Source: Bacilli bacterium
GTDB lineage: Bacteria > Bacillota_I > Bacilli_A > RFN20 > CAG-826
Direction of reading: 5' to 3'
Assembly: GCA_045615665.1 (NCBI GenBank)
Contig: JAZLFJ010000008.1
Location: forward strand, 5,254 to 69,253
DNA: 64,000 bases
The notes beneath the pieces were generated by a model that saw only the letters and a program-made list of their open reading frames with translations, was not told the DNA's origin and did not search any database. The position numbers were made by a program, and so were the translations under genes. Shown here in pieces: positions 4,410 through 32,446 of this stretch (its first letter is position 1; each line of letters opens with the position of its first letter).

Positions 4410-5441
4410 ATGGAAGAAGTAAGTAGATTTGACAAGGTTAAAGGCTTTTTAATTAAGTATTTGCCGTATATTTTGATTGGAATCGTTGTTTTATGTATCG
4501 GCTTAAGTATGATTGGTCCTTTCTTTGATTTAAGAGTAAAAATAGATGGCAAAAAGATTGACACAGTTTACCGTTTAACTGATCTTCTATTTTCAAACAA
4601 TGCGGGCAAGAGCACACAAGTTTTCTTTATATTAACTTATCTGGTCCTTCCGCTTCTTGGTTGTGGTTTTATCTTTTTAGGAAAATTTAAAAATAGTTTC
4701 TATACCATTTCTGTTCTTTTGTTTTTAGTTGCTGCAATGTCAGCAATTTTAGCAAATGATGTCACCGCAACAGTTGTAAGTTTAATTACAGAAATGAGTT
4801 ATAACGTTCATGATGTTTATTTCTGCTTCGTTCTTCCAATTATTATTTTCTTTATTGCGGCCTTCTTATCTTTAGCGATCGCTTCAAAAGAAATAAGTAT
4901 TACTGTTTCAGATATCACAGAGATGGGTATTTTGATTGGTCTTGCTCTTGCTCTTAACTTTGTTAAGATCGTGCAAATGCCAACTGGAGGATCAATCAAT
5001 TTCCAAATGTTGCCTTTATTTATATTGGCACTAAGAAAAGGGCCTATTAAAGGTTTCATTGGCGCAGGTATTGCCTATGGTTTAATCTCATGTATCACGG
5101 ACGGTTATGGAATCGCAACTTATCCTTTTGATTACTTATTAGGATTCGGTTCAGTTTGCGTTCTTGGATTCTTCACCCCATATATCTTTGGAGAAAACCA
5201 AAACAATTATAATTTGAAAGGTGAAATTTTCATCTTTGTTGGTGCTTTAATTTCAACTCTTATTCGCTTCATCGGAGGAACCGTTTCTTCATTGATTATT
5301 TATGGATATGATTTAGTTCCTGCAATGGAATATAACTCGTTATATGTTTCAATCTCTGGATTAATAAGCATCGCCTTAATTATGGCGGTTTATGGCCCAT
5401 TTATTCGCGTCAATAAGCGTTTCTCAACGTCGAATAAATAA
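4410..5441 (+). CDS. thiT: Thiamine transporter ThiT-like ECF S-component with a ~165-aa N-terminal multi-TM extension
   Basis: The C-terminal half (GILIGLALALNFVKIVQMPTGGSINFQMLPLFILALRKGPIKGFIGAGIAYGL...) resembles ThiT/YuaJ. The gene is controlled by the TPP riboswitch. Confidence 0.65.
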   Translation: MEEVSRFDKVKGFLIKYLPYILIGIVVLCIGLSMIGPFFDLRVKIDGKKIDTVYRLTDLLFSNNAGKSTQVFFILTYLVLPLLGCGFIFLGKFKNSFYTISVLLFLVAAMSAILANDVTATVVSLITEMSYNVHDVYFCFVLPIIIFFIAAFLSLAIASKEISITVSDITEMGILIGLALALNFVKIVQMPTGGSINFQMLPLFILALRKGPIKGFIGAGIAYGLISCITDGYGIATYPFDYLLGFGSVCVLGFFTPYIFGENQNNYNLKGEIFIFVGALISTLIRFIGGTVSSLIIYGYDLVPAMEYNSLYVSISGLISIALIMAVYGPFIRVNKRFSTSNK

Positions 5442-25827: not shown

Positions 25828-27939
25828 ATGCTCACGAAAAGAAGTGCGGTTTCAAACCTATTACTATATGCGATTATCATTGTCGCCATATATATCGTTC
25901 AGAGAATGATCGTTTTTGAACCAAATTCTGTAGGGGTTAATTTCGCTATATATCGCGAACTTCTATTCCCAGAATATTTAATAGCTTTTAGCGTCCTTCT
26001 TTTCTTAAGTGCTTGGTATATTTATGCCGAGTATAAAAGAGGCCAATTAAAACTTCATATTCCGCTTATTATATTGCTATCTTGCTTATTTTTAATAAGC
26101 ACTATTATAATTTTAACATTTCCATCTAAACTTGAAATTTTGGTGCCGGTCTATGGCCCATTAAGAGGTGATGATGCAGAATTGCTTTATTATAAGAATG
26201 CTGTAATGAATTTAAATGCTGAACAAAGAGGATTGTTTATTCTCGTTAGTTTTGCTGCTTTATATTTAGCGTATTTACTTATATATGTATTACCACGAAA
26301 GATTAGATATACTCGCCAACTCGAATGGTTAATGTACCTCATTTTGATTTTTAATGTCGTGTTAATCGCCGTTTCACTTTCCACAGAGATTAATGAATAT
26401 ATTAAGTTTTTCCAAGTGGTTCCAAACAAAGACTTTTCATTGTCGGTTAAGATTCAAGGTTTCCTCGGAAACAAGAATAGCTTTGGCGCTGCGATGATGT
26501 TTGGTGTTTTTGCTTCGATTTATTTGCATCATTTAAACGGAAAGTGGTGGTTCTTACCATTTCCAGTTATATTTACCGCTTTTGCTTTAGTGGCCACTTC
26601 CAAGACCAAAACAATGATTTGTGTCATTGTAGTAATCGTTTATTTCATCACTTGCTTGTGCATGCGTTTCAAAAAGCACGTTTTATCGAGTCTTATCATC
26701 ATAGGAGTGGTGCTTGCACTGATTGTAGCAGCCGTCTCGCTATATTTGGTTTACTATTTCAATAATGATTTCATGACTTTAACATTCGAATCTGCTGAGA
26801 ACATTTTCGATTCATTCTTCATAAAAGCTTTTGGAAACGTTACGCACTTAAGCGGAAGACATCGTCAATATGACAAAGTCATCATTTTACTTAACAATGG
26901 TTATTGGGCCTTTGGATCAGGGTATGGCTTATTTAATTACCTCTTCAGAGGCATGGAAAACATTTCCATTAATAGCGGCTTAATTGCTTGGAGTGCAACA
27001 TCAATTACGAAGCTTCCAATCGATAGCGCCCATATGACTGATTCTCCACACAGCTTCTATTATCAAATTATGGGTACAGGTGGAATCGCTACTCTTGTAA
27101 TAGAGGCAATGCTGATATTGTATGTTGTTTTTGCCGCGACAAGAGTTTTCAAAAGACACAAAAAGACAGTCATCATTTGTCTTTCGTTCCTTTTAGGCGC
27201 AATTCTTGAAGGTCTTACAGAAGGAACATCCCTTTTCTTCCTTGGTCCTGTTTATATTGATTCGCTTCTATTTACAATTTTTGCGACAACCATTATTCTC
27301 AGTCTTTATCATCACGAAAAACATCCGAGTGAAAATCGCGTTTTCCTTGCAAATTACGGACAAAACACTACAAAATTCAAAGACGTCAATAAGTCAGCTT
27401 TGATTGCAAAAACTCTTTATTTCTTCTTAGCACCAGCTACTGTTATTATGTGTGTAATTACGCCATTACTATATGGAGAAGCCCTTAAAGACAATCTTCC
27501 ATTTGTAGTTGCAATCATCGTTGTAGCTTCATTATTTGTTGTCGCCCCTATTGCTGCCCAACTAATTTCTGATCGAAAAACCAAATTCACAAAATTTTTA
27601 TTAGATGTTGTCGCCCCTTATTATGGATTCGTTATTGTCTTTGGCGGTTTCATTTACATTTATTATTTGCTCGTGGGCGGTTTCGGTCATGGACTCGCTG
27701 GAATATTGCTAATTGCTACATGTCTAGCCGAATTCACTATCTTTTCTGTATTCAAATATTTTAAAGACAAAGCTGGTATCATAAGTTATTTGCTAGATAA
27801 ACTTTGTGATTTAGTTCATAAACATCAAGCAAAATATATTGAAGTTTCAAATAAAAAAGATTCTCAGACGCTTCAAGAAAAATTCTTTGCTTTAATTACT
27901 CCAAAGAGGTTTAAACAAAATGAAACAACAAACAATTGA
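25828..27939 (+). CDS. Large polytopic membrane protein, O-antigen ligase/polymerase (Wzy/WaaL)-like
   Basis: 703 aa with more than 12 predicted TM segments. The central region GFLGNKNSFGAAMMFGVFASIYLHH resembles the O-antigen ligase domain. The assignment is tentative. Confidence 0.45.
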   Translation: MLTKRSAVSNLLLYAIIIVAIYIVQRMIVFEPNSVGVNFAIYRELLFPEYLIAFSVLLFLSAWYIYAEYKRGQLKLHIPLIILLSCLFLISTIIILTFPSKLEILVPVYGPLRGDDAELLYYKNAVMNLNAEQRGLFILVSFAALYLAYLLIYVLPRKIRYTRQLEWLMYLILIFNVVLIAVSLSTEINEYIKFFQVVPNKDFSLSVKIQGFLGNKNSFGAAMMFGVFASIYLHHLNGKWWFLPFPVIFTAFALVATSKTKTMICVIVVIVYFITCLCMRFKKHVLSSLIIIGVVLALIVAAVSLYLVYYFNNDFMTLTFESAENIFDSFFIKAFGNVTHLSGRHRQYDKVIILLNNGYWAFGSGYGLFNYLFRGMENISINSGLIAWSATSITKLPIDSAHMTDSPHSFYYQIMGTGGIATLVIEAMLILYVVFAATRVFKRHKKTVIICLSFLLGAILEGLTEGTSLFFLGPVYIDSLLFTIFATTIILSLYHHEKHPSENRVFLANYGQNTTKFKDVNKSALIAKTLYFFLAPATVIMCVITPLLYGEALKDNLPFVVAIIVVASLFVVAPIAAQLISDRKTKFTKFLLDVVAPYYGFVIVFGGFIYIYYLLVGGFGHGLAGILLIATCLAEFTIFSVFKYFKDKAGIISYLLDKLCDLVHKHQAKYIEVSNKKDSQTLQEKFFALITPKRFKQNETTNN

Positions 27940-28237
27940 TAGAATCAGACATTTCTCTAGCGATCGTGATTGGGATAAGTATCACACACCTGCAAACTTA
28001 GCGAAGACAATCGTCATAGAGGCTACCGAACTACTTGAATGTTTCCAGTGGGATGATGACAAATTTGACGTCGAACATATGAAGGAAGAATTAGCAGATG
28101 TTATCGTAAATTGCCAAAATTTGGTGGATAAGCTATGCTTAGACGTTGATGAAATCGTCAATAAAAAGATGGAACAAAACGAAAAAAAGTACCCAATAGA
28201 TAAGTTTAAATCCCTCGATAAAAAGTATAATGAGTGA
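27920..28237 (+). CDS. MazG-like nucleotide pyrophosphohydrolase (small all-alpha NTP-PPase), paralog 1
   Basis: 105 aa with FSSDRDWDKYHTPANLAKTIVIEATELLECFQW...EELADVIVNC...KKMEQNEKKYP. It is a paralog of 47509-47838. Confidence 0.7.
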   Translation: MKQQTIDRIRHFSSDRDWDKYHTPANLAKTIVIEATELLECFQWDDDKFDVEHMKEELADVIVNCQNLVDKLCLDVDEIVNKKMEQNEKKYPIDKFKSLDKKYNE

Positions 28238-28480: not shown

Positions 28481-30862
28481 ATGATTAGAGTAATCAAAAG
28501 AGACGATTCCAGAGAAGAATTTAACATTGGTAAAATCAGCTCCGCTATCGAAAAAGCCTTTATGGCAGAACATAAGTTCTACACTAAAGATATTATTGAA
28601 ATGCTCGCGTTACGCGTGACTGCGGATTTCAATAAAAAGATTAAAGACGAAGAAATTTCACTCGAAGACATTCAAGACTCAGTTGAAGTTGTCTTAATTC
28701 AAGCCGGTTACATTGATGTCGCCAAGAGCTATATGGTGTACCGTAAACAGCACGAAAACTTAAGACAAATTAAGGAAACTAGCATTGACTATAAGAACGT
28801 TATTAATAACTACTTAAAGATCAATGACTGGAGAGTTAAGGAAAACTCAACTGTTACATATTCTGTTGGTGGATTAATTCTTTCCAACTCAGGTGCTGTC
28901 ACCGCAAACTATTGGTTAAGCGAAATCTATGATAAGGAAATCGCCGATGCACACCGCAACGCTGATATTCATATTCATGATTTATCGATGCTTACCGGTT
29001 ATTGTGCAGGATGGTCCTTAAAACAACTTATTACTGAAGGTTTGGGTGGTGTTACTGGCAAGATTACATCTGCTCCAGCTGCTCACTTATCAACACTTTG
29101 TAACCAGATGGTTAACTTCTTAGGTATCATGCAAAATGAATGGGCAGGAGCACAAGCCTTCTCCTCGTTCGATACATATTTAGCACCATTTGTTAAAGCT
29201 GATAACCTAAACTACAAACAAGTCAAACAATGCATTCAATCCTTTATCTATGGTGTTAACACTCCATCTAGATGGGGTACTCAAGCACCATTCACCAACA
29301 TCACTTTAGATTGGGTTGTTCCAAATGATATGGCCGAACTCAACTGTATTGTTGGTGGCAAAGAAATGCCATTTAAATACAAAGATTGTGTCGAAGAAAT
29401 GGCGATGGTCAATAAAGCTTTTATTGAAATTATGATCGAAGGTGACGCTAATGGTCGTGGATTCCAATATCCAATTCCAACCTATTCAATTACCAAAACA
29501 TTCGATTGGTCTGAAACTGAAAACAACAAGTTGTTGTTTACAATGACCGCTAAATACGGAACTCCATATTTCTCTAACTACATCAATTCCGATATGGAAC
29601 CAAGCGATGTTAGAAGTATGTGCTGCCGTCTACGCCTTGATTTAAGAGAACTTCGTAAGAAATCAGGTGGTTTCTTCGGTAGTGGTGAATCAACCGGTTC
29701 CGTCGGTGTCGTCACCATCAACTTACCAAGACTTGCTTATTTAGCAACCGATGAAAAAGATTTCTATTCTAGATTAGATAAAATCATGGATATCTCTGCA
29801 CGTTCACTAAAAGTTAAACGTAACACAATTACCACTTTGCTTGAAGCTGGTTTATATCCATACACCAAACGTTATTTAGGCACCTTTAACAACCACTTCT
29901 CCACAATCGGTTTAGTCGGTATGAACGAAGCTTGCTTAAATGCTAGATGGTTAAGAAAAGATTTAACCAATCCAGAAGCTGTTGAATTCGCTAAAGATGT
30001 TCTCAATCACATGAGAAATAGACTTTCTGATTATCAAGAACTCTATGGAGATCTTTATAACCTTGAAGCCACTCCAGCTGAATCAACTGCTTATCGTTTA
30101 GCTAAACACGATAAGAAGAAATATCCAGACATCATCACCGCAAGTGAAAATGGCAAGACTCCTTATTACACCAACTCTTCACACTTACCAGTTGGTTATA
30201 CCGAAGATATCTTCAAAGCTCTTGATGTCCAAGACGAATTACAGACTCTTTACACATCAGGAACAGTCTTCCACGCTTTCTTAGGACAAAAACTCCCATC
30301 ATACAAATCTTGTATGAATCTTGTTCGTAAGATCGCCGAAAATTACCACATTCCTTATTACACAATGTCTCCAACATATTCAATTTGTAAGGAACATGGT
30401 TATCTTGAAGGCGAACAATACATTTGTCCAAAATGCGGTCAAAGAACCGAAGTTTATTCTAGAATCACTGGTTATTATCGTCCTGTTCAAAACTGGAACG
30501 ATGGTAAGACCGAAGAATTCAAGAATCGTAAAGTTTACGACATCAAGAATTCTCATTTAACTCATGACGCAAACGGCTGTGCAATTGAAAACGAACAACC
30601 AACCGCTGAAGAAAACACCAGTGAAAAACTTAATAAAATCTTGTTATTTGCTACCAAAACCTGTCCAAACTGCAAGATGGCCAAAATGCTTTTAGATAAA
30701 GCGAATATCAAATACGAAGTCATCGACGCTGAAGAAAATGTCGAATTAACTAGGAAATATAACGTTAAAAAGGCTCCAACATTACTTGTTCCAAACGGTA
30801 ATGGAATTGATGTCTTTGAAAATGCTTCCAACATCAAAGGATTTATCGAAAGAGTAAATTAA
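28481..30862 (+). CDS. nrdD: Anaerobic (class III) ribonucleoside-triphosphate reductase with an N-terminal ATP-cone and a fused C-terminal thioredoxin/glutaredoxin-fold domain
   Basis: 793 aa. It has an ATP-cone (MIRVIKRDDSREEFNIGKISSAIEKAF), the NrdD core (TGYCAGWSL, SMCCRLRLD), a Zn site (CKEHG...CPKCG) and a glycyl-radical motif (SRITGYYRPV). The extra domain is KILLFATKTCPNCKMAK...KKAPTLLV. Confidence 0.9.
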   Translation: MIRVIKRDDSREEFNIGKISSAIEKAFMAEHKFYTKDIIEMLALRVTADFNKKIKDEEISLEDIQDSVEVVLIQAGYIDVAKSYMVYRKQHENLRQIKETSIDYKNVINNYLKINDWRVKENSTVTYSVGGLILSNSGAVTANYWLSEIYDKEIADAHRNADIHIHDLSMLTGYCAGWSLKQLITEGLGGVTGKITSAPAAHLSTLCNQMVNFLGIMQNEWAGAQAFSSFDTYLAPFVKADNLNYKQVKQCIQSFIYGVNTPSRWGTQAPFTNITLDWVVPNDMAELNCIVGGKEMPFKYKDCVEEMAMVNKAFIEIMIEGDANGRGFQYPIPTYSITKTFDWSETENNKLLFTMTAKYGTPYFSNYINSDMEPSDVRSMCCRLRLDLRELRKKSGGFFGSGESTGSVGVVTINLPRLAYLATDEKDFYSRLDKIMDISARSLKVKRNTITTLLEAGLYPYTKRYLGTFNNHFSTIGLVGMNEACLNARWLRKDLTNPEAVEFAKDVLNHMRNRLSDYQELYGDLYNLEATPAESTAYRLAKHDKKKYPDIITASENGKTPYYTNSSHLPVGYTEDIFKALDVQDELQTLYTSGTVFHAFLGQKLPSYKSCMNLVRKIAENYHIPYYTMSPTYSICKEHGYLEGEQYICPKCGQRTEVYSRITGYYRPVQNWNDGKTEEFKNRKVYDIKNSHLTHDANGCAIENEQPTAEENTSEKLNKILLFATKTCPNCKMAKMLLDKANIKYEVIDAEENVELTRKYNVKKAPTLLVPNGNGIDVFENASNIKGFIERVN

Positions 30863-30863
30863 T

Positions 30864-31763
30864 ATGGTTGATATAATCATCGTTGGTGGTGGACCATCAG
30901 GAATGAGCGCGGCGCTATATGCGCTTCGCTCAAATAAATCCGTTCTCGTTTTAGAGAAGGAAAACTTTGGTGGACAAATTGCAAACTCTCCTAGAGTCGA
31001 AAACTATCCTTCAATAAAAGAAATATCTGGTTTGGATTTATCAGATAGAATGTTTGAACAAATCACCGATCTTGGTGCTCAGTTCGAACTTGAAGATGTT
31101 TTAAAGATTGAAAAAGTTGAAGATATGTTTGTTGTAACCACTAACTATCGAACATATGAATCTAGAGTCGTAATTATCGCTAACGGAGTTAAACACCGCT
31201 TAATGAATCTTCCTAACGAAGAAAATCTCATTGGTAATGGTGTTAGCTTCTGCGCTGTGTGCGATGGACCAATGTACAAGGGCAAAGAAGTATATTTAAT
31301 CGGCGATGCTAATACGGCGCTTCAATATGCGCTTCTATTAGCAAATTACTGCACTAAAGTTCATATGTTCACGTTATTTGATAAATTCTTTGGTGATAAG
31401 ATTTTAATCGATAGATTATTAAGCAAAGAAAGCATTATTGTTAAACAAAACATGAATCTTGTTCAATATTTAGGCGAAGATAAACTCGAAGGACTTGTGT
31501 TTGAAAACACTAAGACCAAAGAGAAGAGCGAATATCGCACCGATAACGTCTTTGTGGCGATTGGACAAATTCCAAACAATGAAAAATTTGCCAATCTAGT
31601 CGATTTAGAAAATGGATATATTGTCACTGACGACGCCATGTGCACCAAAACCCCAGGCGTTTATGCGTGCGGTGACACTAGAAAAAAAGAAACACGCCAA
31701 GTTGTTACGGCGTGCAATGATGGAGCGATTGCTGCGCTAAGCGCAGTTAAATATTTGGGTTAA
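30864..31763 (+). CDS. Thioredoxin-reductase-like flavoprotein (CAVC) lacking canonical NADPH-binding motifs
   Basis: 299 aa with FAD motif VGGGPSG and redox pair FCAVCDG. It has GDANTA where TrxB has GGGxxA, and HMFTLFDKFFG where TrxB has HxxHRRxxFRA. It starts 1 nt after the nrdD stop. Confidence 0.75.
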   Translation: MVDIIIVGGGPSGMSAALYALRSNKSVLVLEKENFGGQIANSPRVENYPSIKEISGLDLSDRMFEQITDLGAQFELEDVLKIEKVEDMFVVTTNYRTYESRVVIIANGVKHRLMNLPNEENLIGNGVSFCAVCDGPMYKGKEVYLIGDANTALQYALLLANYCTKVHMFTLFDKFFGDKILIDRLLSKESIIVKQNMNLVQYLGEDKLEGLVFENTKTKEKSEYRTDNVFVAIGQIPNNEKFANLVDLENGYIVTDDAMCTKTPGVYACGDTRKKETRQVVTACNDGAIAALSAVKYLG

Positions 31764-32446
31764 TAACCTCTAAGTTCTACGTTTAATACGTAACTAGCTA
31801 AAATATCCTTATATGATAAAGCCCAAACCTGTTCAACCGGGTGGAGGCCTTTTTTAATTACGCCTTCGCGGTCTACGAATTTCTGTAAGAAAAGTTTTTT
31901 AGCGCCTTTAATAAGTTTACCCATTTCTTTAATTGATTCTTCAGAATGATATTCTGCCACCAATGTGGTTCTAAATTCATAATCTATTCCTGAATTCATA
32001 ATGATGGAAATAGATTGTTTAATTTTATCCAATTGAGGGTTTTTAACACCAGTTGTTTCCGGATAGATTTTCTCACTGTTTTTAATATCCATTGCAACGT
32101 AATTTATCAGGTCTTTGCGGAGTAATTCGCCTAAAACATCAGGATTTGTACCATTCGTATCCAGTTTAATTTTAAAACCTAATTCTTTAATTTTTTCAAT
32201 CTTTATAACGACATCATCCATAAGTGTTGGTTCTCCGCCTGAAACGACAACAGCATCGATTAAACCAACTCTAGTTTTTAAAAAAGATAGTATCTCATCG
32301 AAAGGAATTGAAAAATGGCTTCCTAATACTGAATCGCCGTTATGACAAAATGGACAACGATAATTACATGTGGGTGCGAATAAAACAACTGATACATTTT
32401 CATCGTAATCAAGTAATGAGAATTTATCTATTCCTACGAAATCCAT
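31760..32446 (-). CDS. nrdG: Anaerobic RNR activating protein (radical SAM)
   Basis: 228 aa with the CNYRCPFCHN cluster motif and GGEPTL. Confidence 0.85.
   Translation of the reverse strand: MDFVGIDKFSLLDYDENVSVVLFAPTCNYRCPFCHNGDSVLGSHFSIPFDEILSFLKTRVGLIDAVVVSGGEPTLMDDVVIKIEKIKELGFKIKLDTNGTNPDVLGELLRKDLINYVAMDIKNSEKIYPETTGVKNPQLDKIKQSISIIMNSGIDYEFRTTLVAEYHSEESIKEMGKLIKGAKKLFLQKFVDREGVIKKGLHPVEQVWALSYKDILASYVLNVELRGY

Follow-up and report, generated by a model that had tools for sequence, protein, structure and literature searches.

The 64,000-nucleotide stretch analyzed here (hereafter the window) comes from a Bacilli bacterium of the gut (GTDB family CAG-826) and spans positions 5,254 to 69,253 of contig JAZLFJ010000008.1 in assembly GCA_045615665.1. 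It carries an nrdD gene for a class III ribonucleotide reductase (RNR), and this gene runs on in frame into a small domain of the thioredoxin fold. The product is probably a thiol-dependent class III RNR of the NrdD2 type that captured its own disulfide reductant as this C-terminal domain, and the residues of its active site suggest that it runs on protein thiols rather than on formate. All nucleotide coordinates below are positions in the window.

The nrdD::redoxin fusion gene occupies positions 28481 to 30862 of the forward strand as one stop-free frame of 793 codons plus the stop. Its product passed the NrdD family models NF006126 (1126 bits against a cut-off of 548), TIGR02487 (521 against 326), and PF13597 (633 bits, E-value 5e-190). 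From the N-terminus, the forward-strand features are an ATP-cone at residues 3-92 (28487-28756; PF03477, 75 bits), the catalytic core with the glycyl-radical domain at residues 121-686, the span of PF13597 (28841-30538), a flexible linker at residues 687-718 that holds Cys700 (30539-30634), and the thioredoxin-fold (glutaredoxin/NrdH-like) domain at residues 719-793 (30635-30859). The core contains the Zn-ribbon ligands C636, H639, C649, and C652 (CKEHG...CPKCG, residues 636-652; 30386-30436) and the glycyl-radical motif RITGYY at residues 661-666 (30461-30478). Residue conservation was scored over 66 full-length relatives from other species, in which the Zn ligands are kept in 65 or 66 sequences and the radical-bearing G664 in all. 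An earlier note on this DNA, made from the letters only, had closed the NrdD core with the Zn ribbon and the glycyl-radical motif; every peptide that it quoted was found at the positions it gave. The Zn ribbon and the glycyl-radical motif agree with a class III assignment, as does the adjacent nrdG, which encodes the matching radical-SAM activase. The NCBIfam model NF006126, named ribonucleoside-triphosphate reductase, stops at residue 688, so the redoxin tail is an add-on to the NrdD family.

The tail peptide KILLFATKTCPNCK begins exactly at residue 719 (nucleotide 30635), and its last coding nucleotide, 30859, is followed by TAA. Pfam Glutaredoxin (PF00462) matches residues 720-769 with 35.3 to 39.5 bits, above the gathering cut-off of 22.9, and also matches all 81 aligned relatives. 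When the tail was modeled alone (residues 706-793) with AlphaFold2 (AF2) from an alignment of 81 sequences of other species, the model reached a mean pLDDT of 89.5 and showed the thioredoxin topology in its minimal form, beta-alpha-beta-alpha-beta-beta-alpha. A Foldseek search of the PDB with this model returned thioredoxins, along with KaiB, a thioredoxin-like protein, with a probability of 1.0 and TM-scores of about 0.6-0.7, and a profile search of PDB sequences returned glutaredoxin-like protein-disulfide oxidoreductases (E-value 1e-11), thioredoxins and, weakly, NrdH-redoxins (E-value about 1e-6). The candidate redox-active site CPNC (C728 and C731; residues 728-731, 30662-30673, forward strand) lies at the N-terminus of helix 1 (model residues 24-35), and its two cysteines and its proline are invariant in the 66 relatives, with the asparagine kept in 65. 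Pro766 (30776-30778, forward strand), the candidate cis-proline, stands ahead of strand 3 (model strand E62-67) within A765-P766-T767 (30773-30781), and A765 and P766 are likewise found in 66 of 66. The tail thus has the profile match, the fold, the CxxC at helix 1, and the cis-proline site before strand 3 of a thioredoxin-fold CxxC redoxin.

The family to which this redoxin belongs is a separate matter. NrdH-redoxins carry the family motifs CVQC and WSGFRP; the site here is CPNC, WSGFRP is absent, and TIGR02194, whose cut-off is 85.75, gives 21.7-25.2 bits, so that membership was rejected. A classical glutathione-dependent glutaredoxin (Grx), which would have a CPYC-type site and glutathione-binding residues, is improbable on the scores to the curated models, which are far under their cut-offs (e.g., 23-27 bits against 90 for TIGR02181). 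By these scores and the predicted fold, the tail forms a lineage of its own among the thioredoxin-fold CxxC redoxins, outside NrdH and probably outside classical Grx; it would resemble NrdH in role, being Grx-like and encoded beside a thioredoxin reductase (TrxR)-like gene, without belonging to that family. The earlier note had proposed a C-terminal Trx/NrdH-type fold with a CxxC pair at 30662-30673 and an xPT: the fold was borne out by the HMM, AF2, and Foldseek searches, the CPNC and the A-P-T triplet are as described, and the NrdH family itself was not matched.

The NrdD core carries the residues expected of a thiol-dependent enzyme. NrdD2 is defined by a third active-site cysteine next to the thiyl cysteine plus an active-site glutamate (Wei et al. 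2014, after the summary by Aurelius et al., PMC4493059). In the window, Cys175 (29003-29005), the beta-A active-site cysteine, aligns to C125 of Thermotoga maritima NrdD; the finger loop M380-C381-C382-R383 (29618-29629) is of the double-cysteine type and aligns to T. maritima SCCR; and Glu529 (30065-30067), a putative active-site base or proton source, lies in NLEATPAE opposite NIEQVPAE (E495), all three being on the forward strand. Cys175, the two loop cysteines, the arginine, and Glu529 are present in 66 of 66 relatives and Met380 in 65. Since both the third cysteine and the glutamate are present (MCCR at 380-383 and Glu529, aligned to SCCR and E495), the core fits the NrdD2 definition. The formate-dependent NrdD1 signature, MGCR without the glutamate, was not matched, even though Met380 is kept, and the formate-type Prevotella copri NrdD has a leucine where the window enzyme has Glu529. 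The signature of the NrdH-dependent NrdD3 of methanogens, a third cysteine without the glutamate, is ruled out by the invariant Glu529. The earlier note had held that a formate-type signature in the core would speak against its proposal; the alignment gave C175, MCCR, and Glu529, the thiol type, instead.

The fusion is a feature of a whole clade and is widespread. In a sample of 400 genomes of the phylum, 192 of which contain some NrdD, all 67 NrdDs that share 71% identity or more with the window enzyme over the C-terminal half of the core sit in frames of 777-846 aa (one of them cut by a contig end), and these 67 genomes are the same genomes that match the redoxin domain; the next-best NrdD below them in the sample is only 56% identical. 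These alignments indicate that the fusion is clade-defining. The domain is present in 99 of 201 genomes of the same order, almost always within a frame of 790-830 aa. When one genome of each species was scanned, at least 595 loci of the fusion came to light; among the best 80 of these from other species, 79 are fused in one open reading frame and 76 have CPNC. The fused loci include cultured isolates and complete chromosomes, and the records are labeled as Bacilli and Erysipelotrichaceae metagenome-assembled genomes (MAGs), Christensenellaceae, Oscillospiraceae, Faecalibacterium prausnitzii, Pseudoflavonifractor phocaeensis, Butyrivibrio sp., Lachnospiraceae, and a spirochaete. Matches to the tail region were obtained in 1907 protein clusters (90% identity), and in the top 120 of them PF00462 is always combined with PF13597 in about 790 aa. 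A search of a representative library with the tail returned mostly proteins of 70-160 aa, many of which resemble fragments at contig ends. How often such fusions occur in related genomes had been left as a question by the earlier note: the fusion is universal in the clade (67/67) and near-universal among the 80 loci.

NrdDs without the tail offer a natural contrast. Where a genome of the same family lacks the domain, its NrdD is a different one, 27-32% identical, with MGCR, FSLIATPAE (no glutamate) and no tail, which is the formate type. The nearest unfused relatives, which were traced through genomes, are 47-50% identical, about 700 aa long, and of the MCCR type with nrdG directly after; no redoxin or TrxR gene was found beside the loci of these nearest unfused MCCR enzymes that were examined.

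Within the fusion, the core averages 84% identity (65 relatives, other species), the redoxin 56%, and the linker 20%, with linker lengths of 23 to 48 aa in relatives. The redoxin residues F723, C728, P729, C731, A765, and P766 are nevertheless invariant, and their invariance despite the lower identity of the domain and linker indicates purifying selection on what is predicted to be a working CxxC redoxin. The linker of the window is 32 aa long and acidic/polar, in line with the acidic linker of about 30 aa described in the earlier note, and it is predicted to be disordered. In the full-length AF2 model, pLDDT falls below 50 at residues 698-714 and recovers over the redoxin domain; this model, of moderate confidence overall (pLDDT 76), fits a redoxin domain tethered by a disordered linker and is uninformative on how the redoxin docks to the core. 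Although hypervariable, the linker is enriched in cysteine (3.6% vs 1.8% for the whole protein): 41 of 66 relatives have at least one cysteine in it and 26 of 66 a close pair, CxC or CC (e.g., CECE, CACE, and CGCE), with the single Cys700 in the window. By analogy, such a pair could be a shuttle like the C-terminal tail of class I/II RNRs.

It should be noted that about 40 contigs predicted to be viral by IMG/VR also carry a fused NrdD::redoxin with MCCR, NLEATPAE, and CPNC, CPKC, or CPRC. In many of these, the match to the window NrdD starts only near residue 99, and the ATP-cone may be missing.

Directly downstream of the fusion lies a gene for a TrxR-like flavoprotein of 299 aa (30864-31763, forward strand), whose ATG follows the nrdD stop TAA by 1 nt. 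The protein has a CAVC site and an FAD motif and aligns end to end with the NADPH-dependent TrxR 7AAW (224 bits). It was rejected as an NADPH-dependent low-Mr thioredoxin reductase, as its TIGR01292 score of 315 bits is under the cut-off of 343 and both NADPH motifs are replaced relative to 7AAW (IGDANTA for GGGDSA and TLFDKFF for HRRxxxR). FFTRs, a type found in clostridia, have the TrxR fold without NAD(P)H motifs and are reduced by ferredoxin; the FFTR structures 6GNA-D score 121-137 bits, compared with up to 224 for the NADPH-type enzymes. A TrxR-like gene follows the fusion directly in 17 of 20 loci of the order and in 63 of the 80 loci of other species. The partners fall into three cofactor-site classes: the window type, GD[AG]N[TS]A...TLFDKFF, in 39; GGGNSA...Q[ND]LPxxTGE in 14; and the canonical NADPH type, GGGxSA...HRRxxFR, in 12, e.g., in the F. 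prausnitzii and P. phocaeensis records. Because genuine NADPH-TrxRs fill the same downstream slot, the fused redoxin domain is most likely a TrxR substrate. The NADPH site is missing from the flavoprotein of the window, from which we infer that its donor is other than NADPH and that the electron donor changed in this lineage; the three classes together suggest repeated rewiring of the donor.

The nrdG gene (31760-32446, reverse strand) codes for the radical-SAM activase (TIGR02495, 190 bits against a cut-off of 131) and is convergent with the operon. Its stop codon and that of the TrxR-like gene overlap in one TTAA at 31760-31763, which leaves no room for a terminator between the two genes. 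Directly upstream of nrdD is a gene for a MazG-like NTP pyrophosphohydrolase (27920-28237; PF12643, 59 bits).

We infer each electron-transfer step of the following cycle, in which, on our best reading, the fused redoxin is an intermediate carrier and not the terminal reductant. NrdG, by its family membership, would install the glycyl radical at G664. Each turnover would then link Cys175 to one of the finger-loop cysteines (C381 or C382) in a disulfide, Glu529 serving as the base, as work on Neisseria bacilliformis and T. maritima would predict. The CPNC domain may swing on its disordered linker of about 30 residues to re-reduce this disulfide, either in cis or across the dimer, and the conserved gene order suggests that the downstream flavoprotein recharges the oxidised CPNC. 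The flavoprotein itself might draw on a ferredoxin-type carrier fed by pyruvate:ferredoxin oxidoreductase (PFOR), or on NADH. The earlier note had proposed that the terminal reductant is delivered within the same polypeptide: the covalent tethering stands, with one frame and a fold, and the terminal role does not, since the domain reads as a carrier with its likely recharger encoded 1 nt downstream. A bolder version, which we regard as tentative and rather doubtful, is a private electron wire for deoxyribonucleotide synthesis, in this lineage and in many gut anaerobes, that would bypass both formate and NADPH, running from a low-potential donor (e.g., a ferredoxin-type carrier supplied by PFOR) through the NADPH-site-less flavoprotein, the tethered CPNC and, in the roughly 40% of relatives that have it, the linker CxC/CC pair to the Cys175/Cys381-382 disulfide. 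If true, a class III RNR would thereby have a counterpart in function to the C-terminal shuttle tail known from classes I and II.

The rest of the genome was searched for donors and for other reductases. The assembly comprises 1.18 Mb in 62 contigs and is 95% complete, so absences from it are provisional. The fused NrdD is the only RNR found in it, with no class I or II enzyme detected, and all DNA synthesis would therefore depend on the fusion. No pyruvate formate-lyase (PFL)-like gene was found in the genome, which leaves no obvious internal source of formate, though formate import is possible. The genome has PFOR and one ordinary thioredoxin; no canonical NADPH-TrxR was found in it, nor GshF, while gshA and gshB were not searched for. 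A strict CxxCxxCxxxCP scan of the genome picked up Fe-S domains in large proteins only (PFOR and hydrogenase-like) and no small 2[4Fe-4S] ferredoxin, and a flavodoxin search gave a weak sub-threshold match only. A second TrxB homologue, also without the NADPH motifs (VIGNNNIA...LVNSDEKLVG), lies at 8123-8995 of contig C19 (reverse strand) in the housekeeping setting lgt-HAD-trxB-rapZ-whiA, and a second Glutaredoxin-family match of 33 bits lies at 10890-11024 of contig C42 (reverse strand), in a 144-aa frame.

Several observations weigh against a thiol-driven enzyme fed by its own redoxin and reductase. All but one of the relatives retain Met380, on which formate chemistry relies; MCCR enzymes as a group, set apart from MGCR ones together with SCCR by Burnim et al. 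(PMC9669993), keep this methionine, so that by sequence either reductant, formate included, is possible in principle. A redoxin would have to gain access to the buried active-site disulfide of NrdD, and AF2 is unsure of the finger loop, with pLDDT below 50 at 382-386 and 169-178. An adjacent TrxR-like gene is missing from 17 of the 80 loci of other species, from all three loci sampled from one sister family, and from the flanks (up to 3 kb) of the fused nrdD on the approximately 40 viral-predicted contigs. Finally, PFL was found in only one of five unfused relatives, and its absence is not cleanly correlated with NrdD type.

The retained Met380 would also suit a role in maintenance or activation, in which the redoxin keeps the cysteines of the Zn ribbon and glycyl-radical domain reduced for NrdG while formate does the chemistry through Met380 and Cys175. 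Such a role was once reported for thioredoxin with Escherichia coli NrdD (cited in PMC4390871), and the domain stands only about 70 residues past the Zn-ribbon cysteines. It would serve formate-type NrdDs equally well, and the restriction of the fusion to the MCCR+Glu clade, with the MGCR enzymes of the same family doing without it, argues against this explanation; the lack of a detected PFL in the genome and the dedicated reductase gene, which suggests stoichiometric electron flow, point the same way, and we consider it unlikely. Less likely still is a redox sensor or protective module, with the CPNC domain reporting or buffering oxidative stress (for instance through inactivation of the enzyme or protection of its radical domain) and passing no electrons to catalysis. 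Thioredoxin-fold domains do serve as sensors elsewhere, as a matter of general knowledge, and the top Foldseek match of the tail is KaiB, a non-redox member of the fold; KaiB-type proteins, however, lack the CxxC, whereas here its cysteines and the cis-proline are strictly invariant, the gene is linked to that of a disulfide reductase, and the core holds the complete dithiol catalytic set. We give almost no credence to an assembly or frameshift artefact joining nrdD to a separate small redoxin gene, a possibility raised in the earlier note. The frame is continuous, the same fusion recurs in independent assemblies (79 of 80, cultured isolates and complete chromosomes among them) and in every member of the clade, and the C-terminal region is matched by the 1907 clusters. 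A thiol-dependent NrdD2-type enzyme with its own redoxin is thus the reading that we prefer.

The fusion bears on a question of the field, namely which reductant the MCCR class III enzymes use in vivo (Burnim et al.), and it makes the choice between formate and thiol directly testable. A clade with the redoxin welded onto the enzyme, and with its own reductase alongside, would be a natural Rosetta-stone answer, as well as a convenient, self-contained system for learning how a redoxin reaches the buried active site of class III. The module is present in at least about 600 species-level genomes and on viral-predicted IMG/VR contigs, and it is common in gut bacteria. The three variants of the partner's cofactor site suggest that the electron pool drawn on for dNTP synthesis has been rewired from lineage to lineage.

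In the literature, the architecture is recorded but unstudied. Table S1 of PMC6187632 lists a single Glutaredoxin:NrdD in RefSeq, from Lachnospiraceae bacterium TWA4 (WP_082039398.1, subclass NrdDd), without further analysis; the domain combination is the same, this entry probably belongs to the same clade, and Lachnospiraceae MAGs carry the window-type fusion. Compared with the present analysis, that 2018 listing gives no active-site type, distribution, or partner reductase. The survey of RNR extensions and class III finger loops in Burnim 2022 (PMC9669993) does not mention a fused redoxin, and full-text literature searches found no characterisation of a Grx:NrdD fusion.

Redoxins serve both NrdD2 and NrdD3 (see the summaries in PMC4493059 and PMC9176816). 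The NrdD2 enzymes of N. bacilliformis and T. maritima (PDB 4COI/4U3E) share the double-cysteine finger loop, the beta-A cysteine, and the active-site glutamate with the window enzyme (PMC4493059, PMC9669993), and in them, as here, a protein dithiol is the presumed reductant. What differs is the covalent attachment of the window redoxin behind the glycyl-radical domain, with a dedicated TrxR-like gene following; relative to T. maritima NrdD, with which identity is low (137 bits), the loop also reads MCCR, with the methionine kept, instead of SCCR. The NrdD3 of Methanosarcina barkeri is likewise a class III RNR with a small Grx-like redoxin, served by a ferredoxin:disulfide reductase (as summarised in PMC9176816). 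It lacks the glutamate that the window enzyme has as Glu529, and its redoxin is a separate protein, whereas that of the window is fused. The M. barkeri redoxin is reportedly recharged (Wei 2015) by a dedicated reductase that does not use NADPH and has its gene nearby; this reductase is an Fe-S enzyme, and that of the window a TrxR-like flavoprotein.

Class III RNRs are stated to lack the external cysteine pair of the class I/II C-terminal type (Lundin 2015, PMC4390871), a flexible extension that relays redoxin electrons to the active site and to which the CxC/CC pair in 26 of 66 linkers is comparable. The window fusion differs in bearing a whole redoxin, and the linker pair is not universal, with one cysteine in the window. 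A precedent for a tethered redoxin is the Grx::ATP-cone::NrdB of Facklamia ignava, in which, as here, a glutaredoxin-fold domain is fused to an RNR subunit and in which the Grx was shown biochemically to be the RNR reductant (Rozman Grinberg et al. 2018, PMC6187632). That protein is a class I, glutathione-dependent system with an N-terminal fusion on the radical-generating subunit, whereas the window protein, in a genome where GshF was not found, is of class III and carries its redoxin C-terminally on the catalytic subunit itself.

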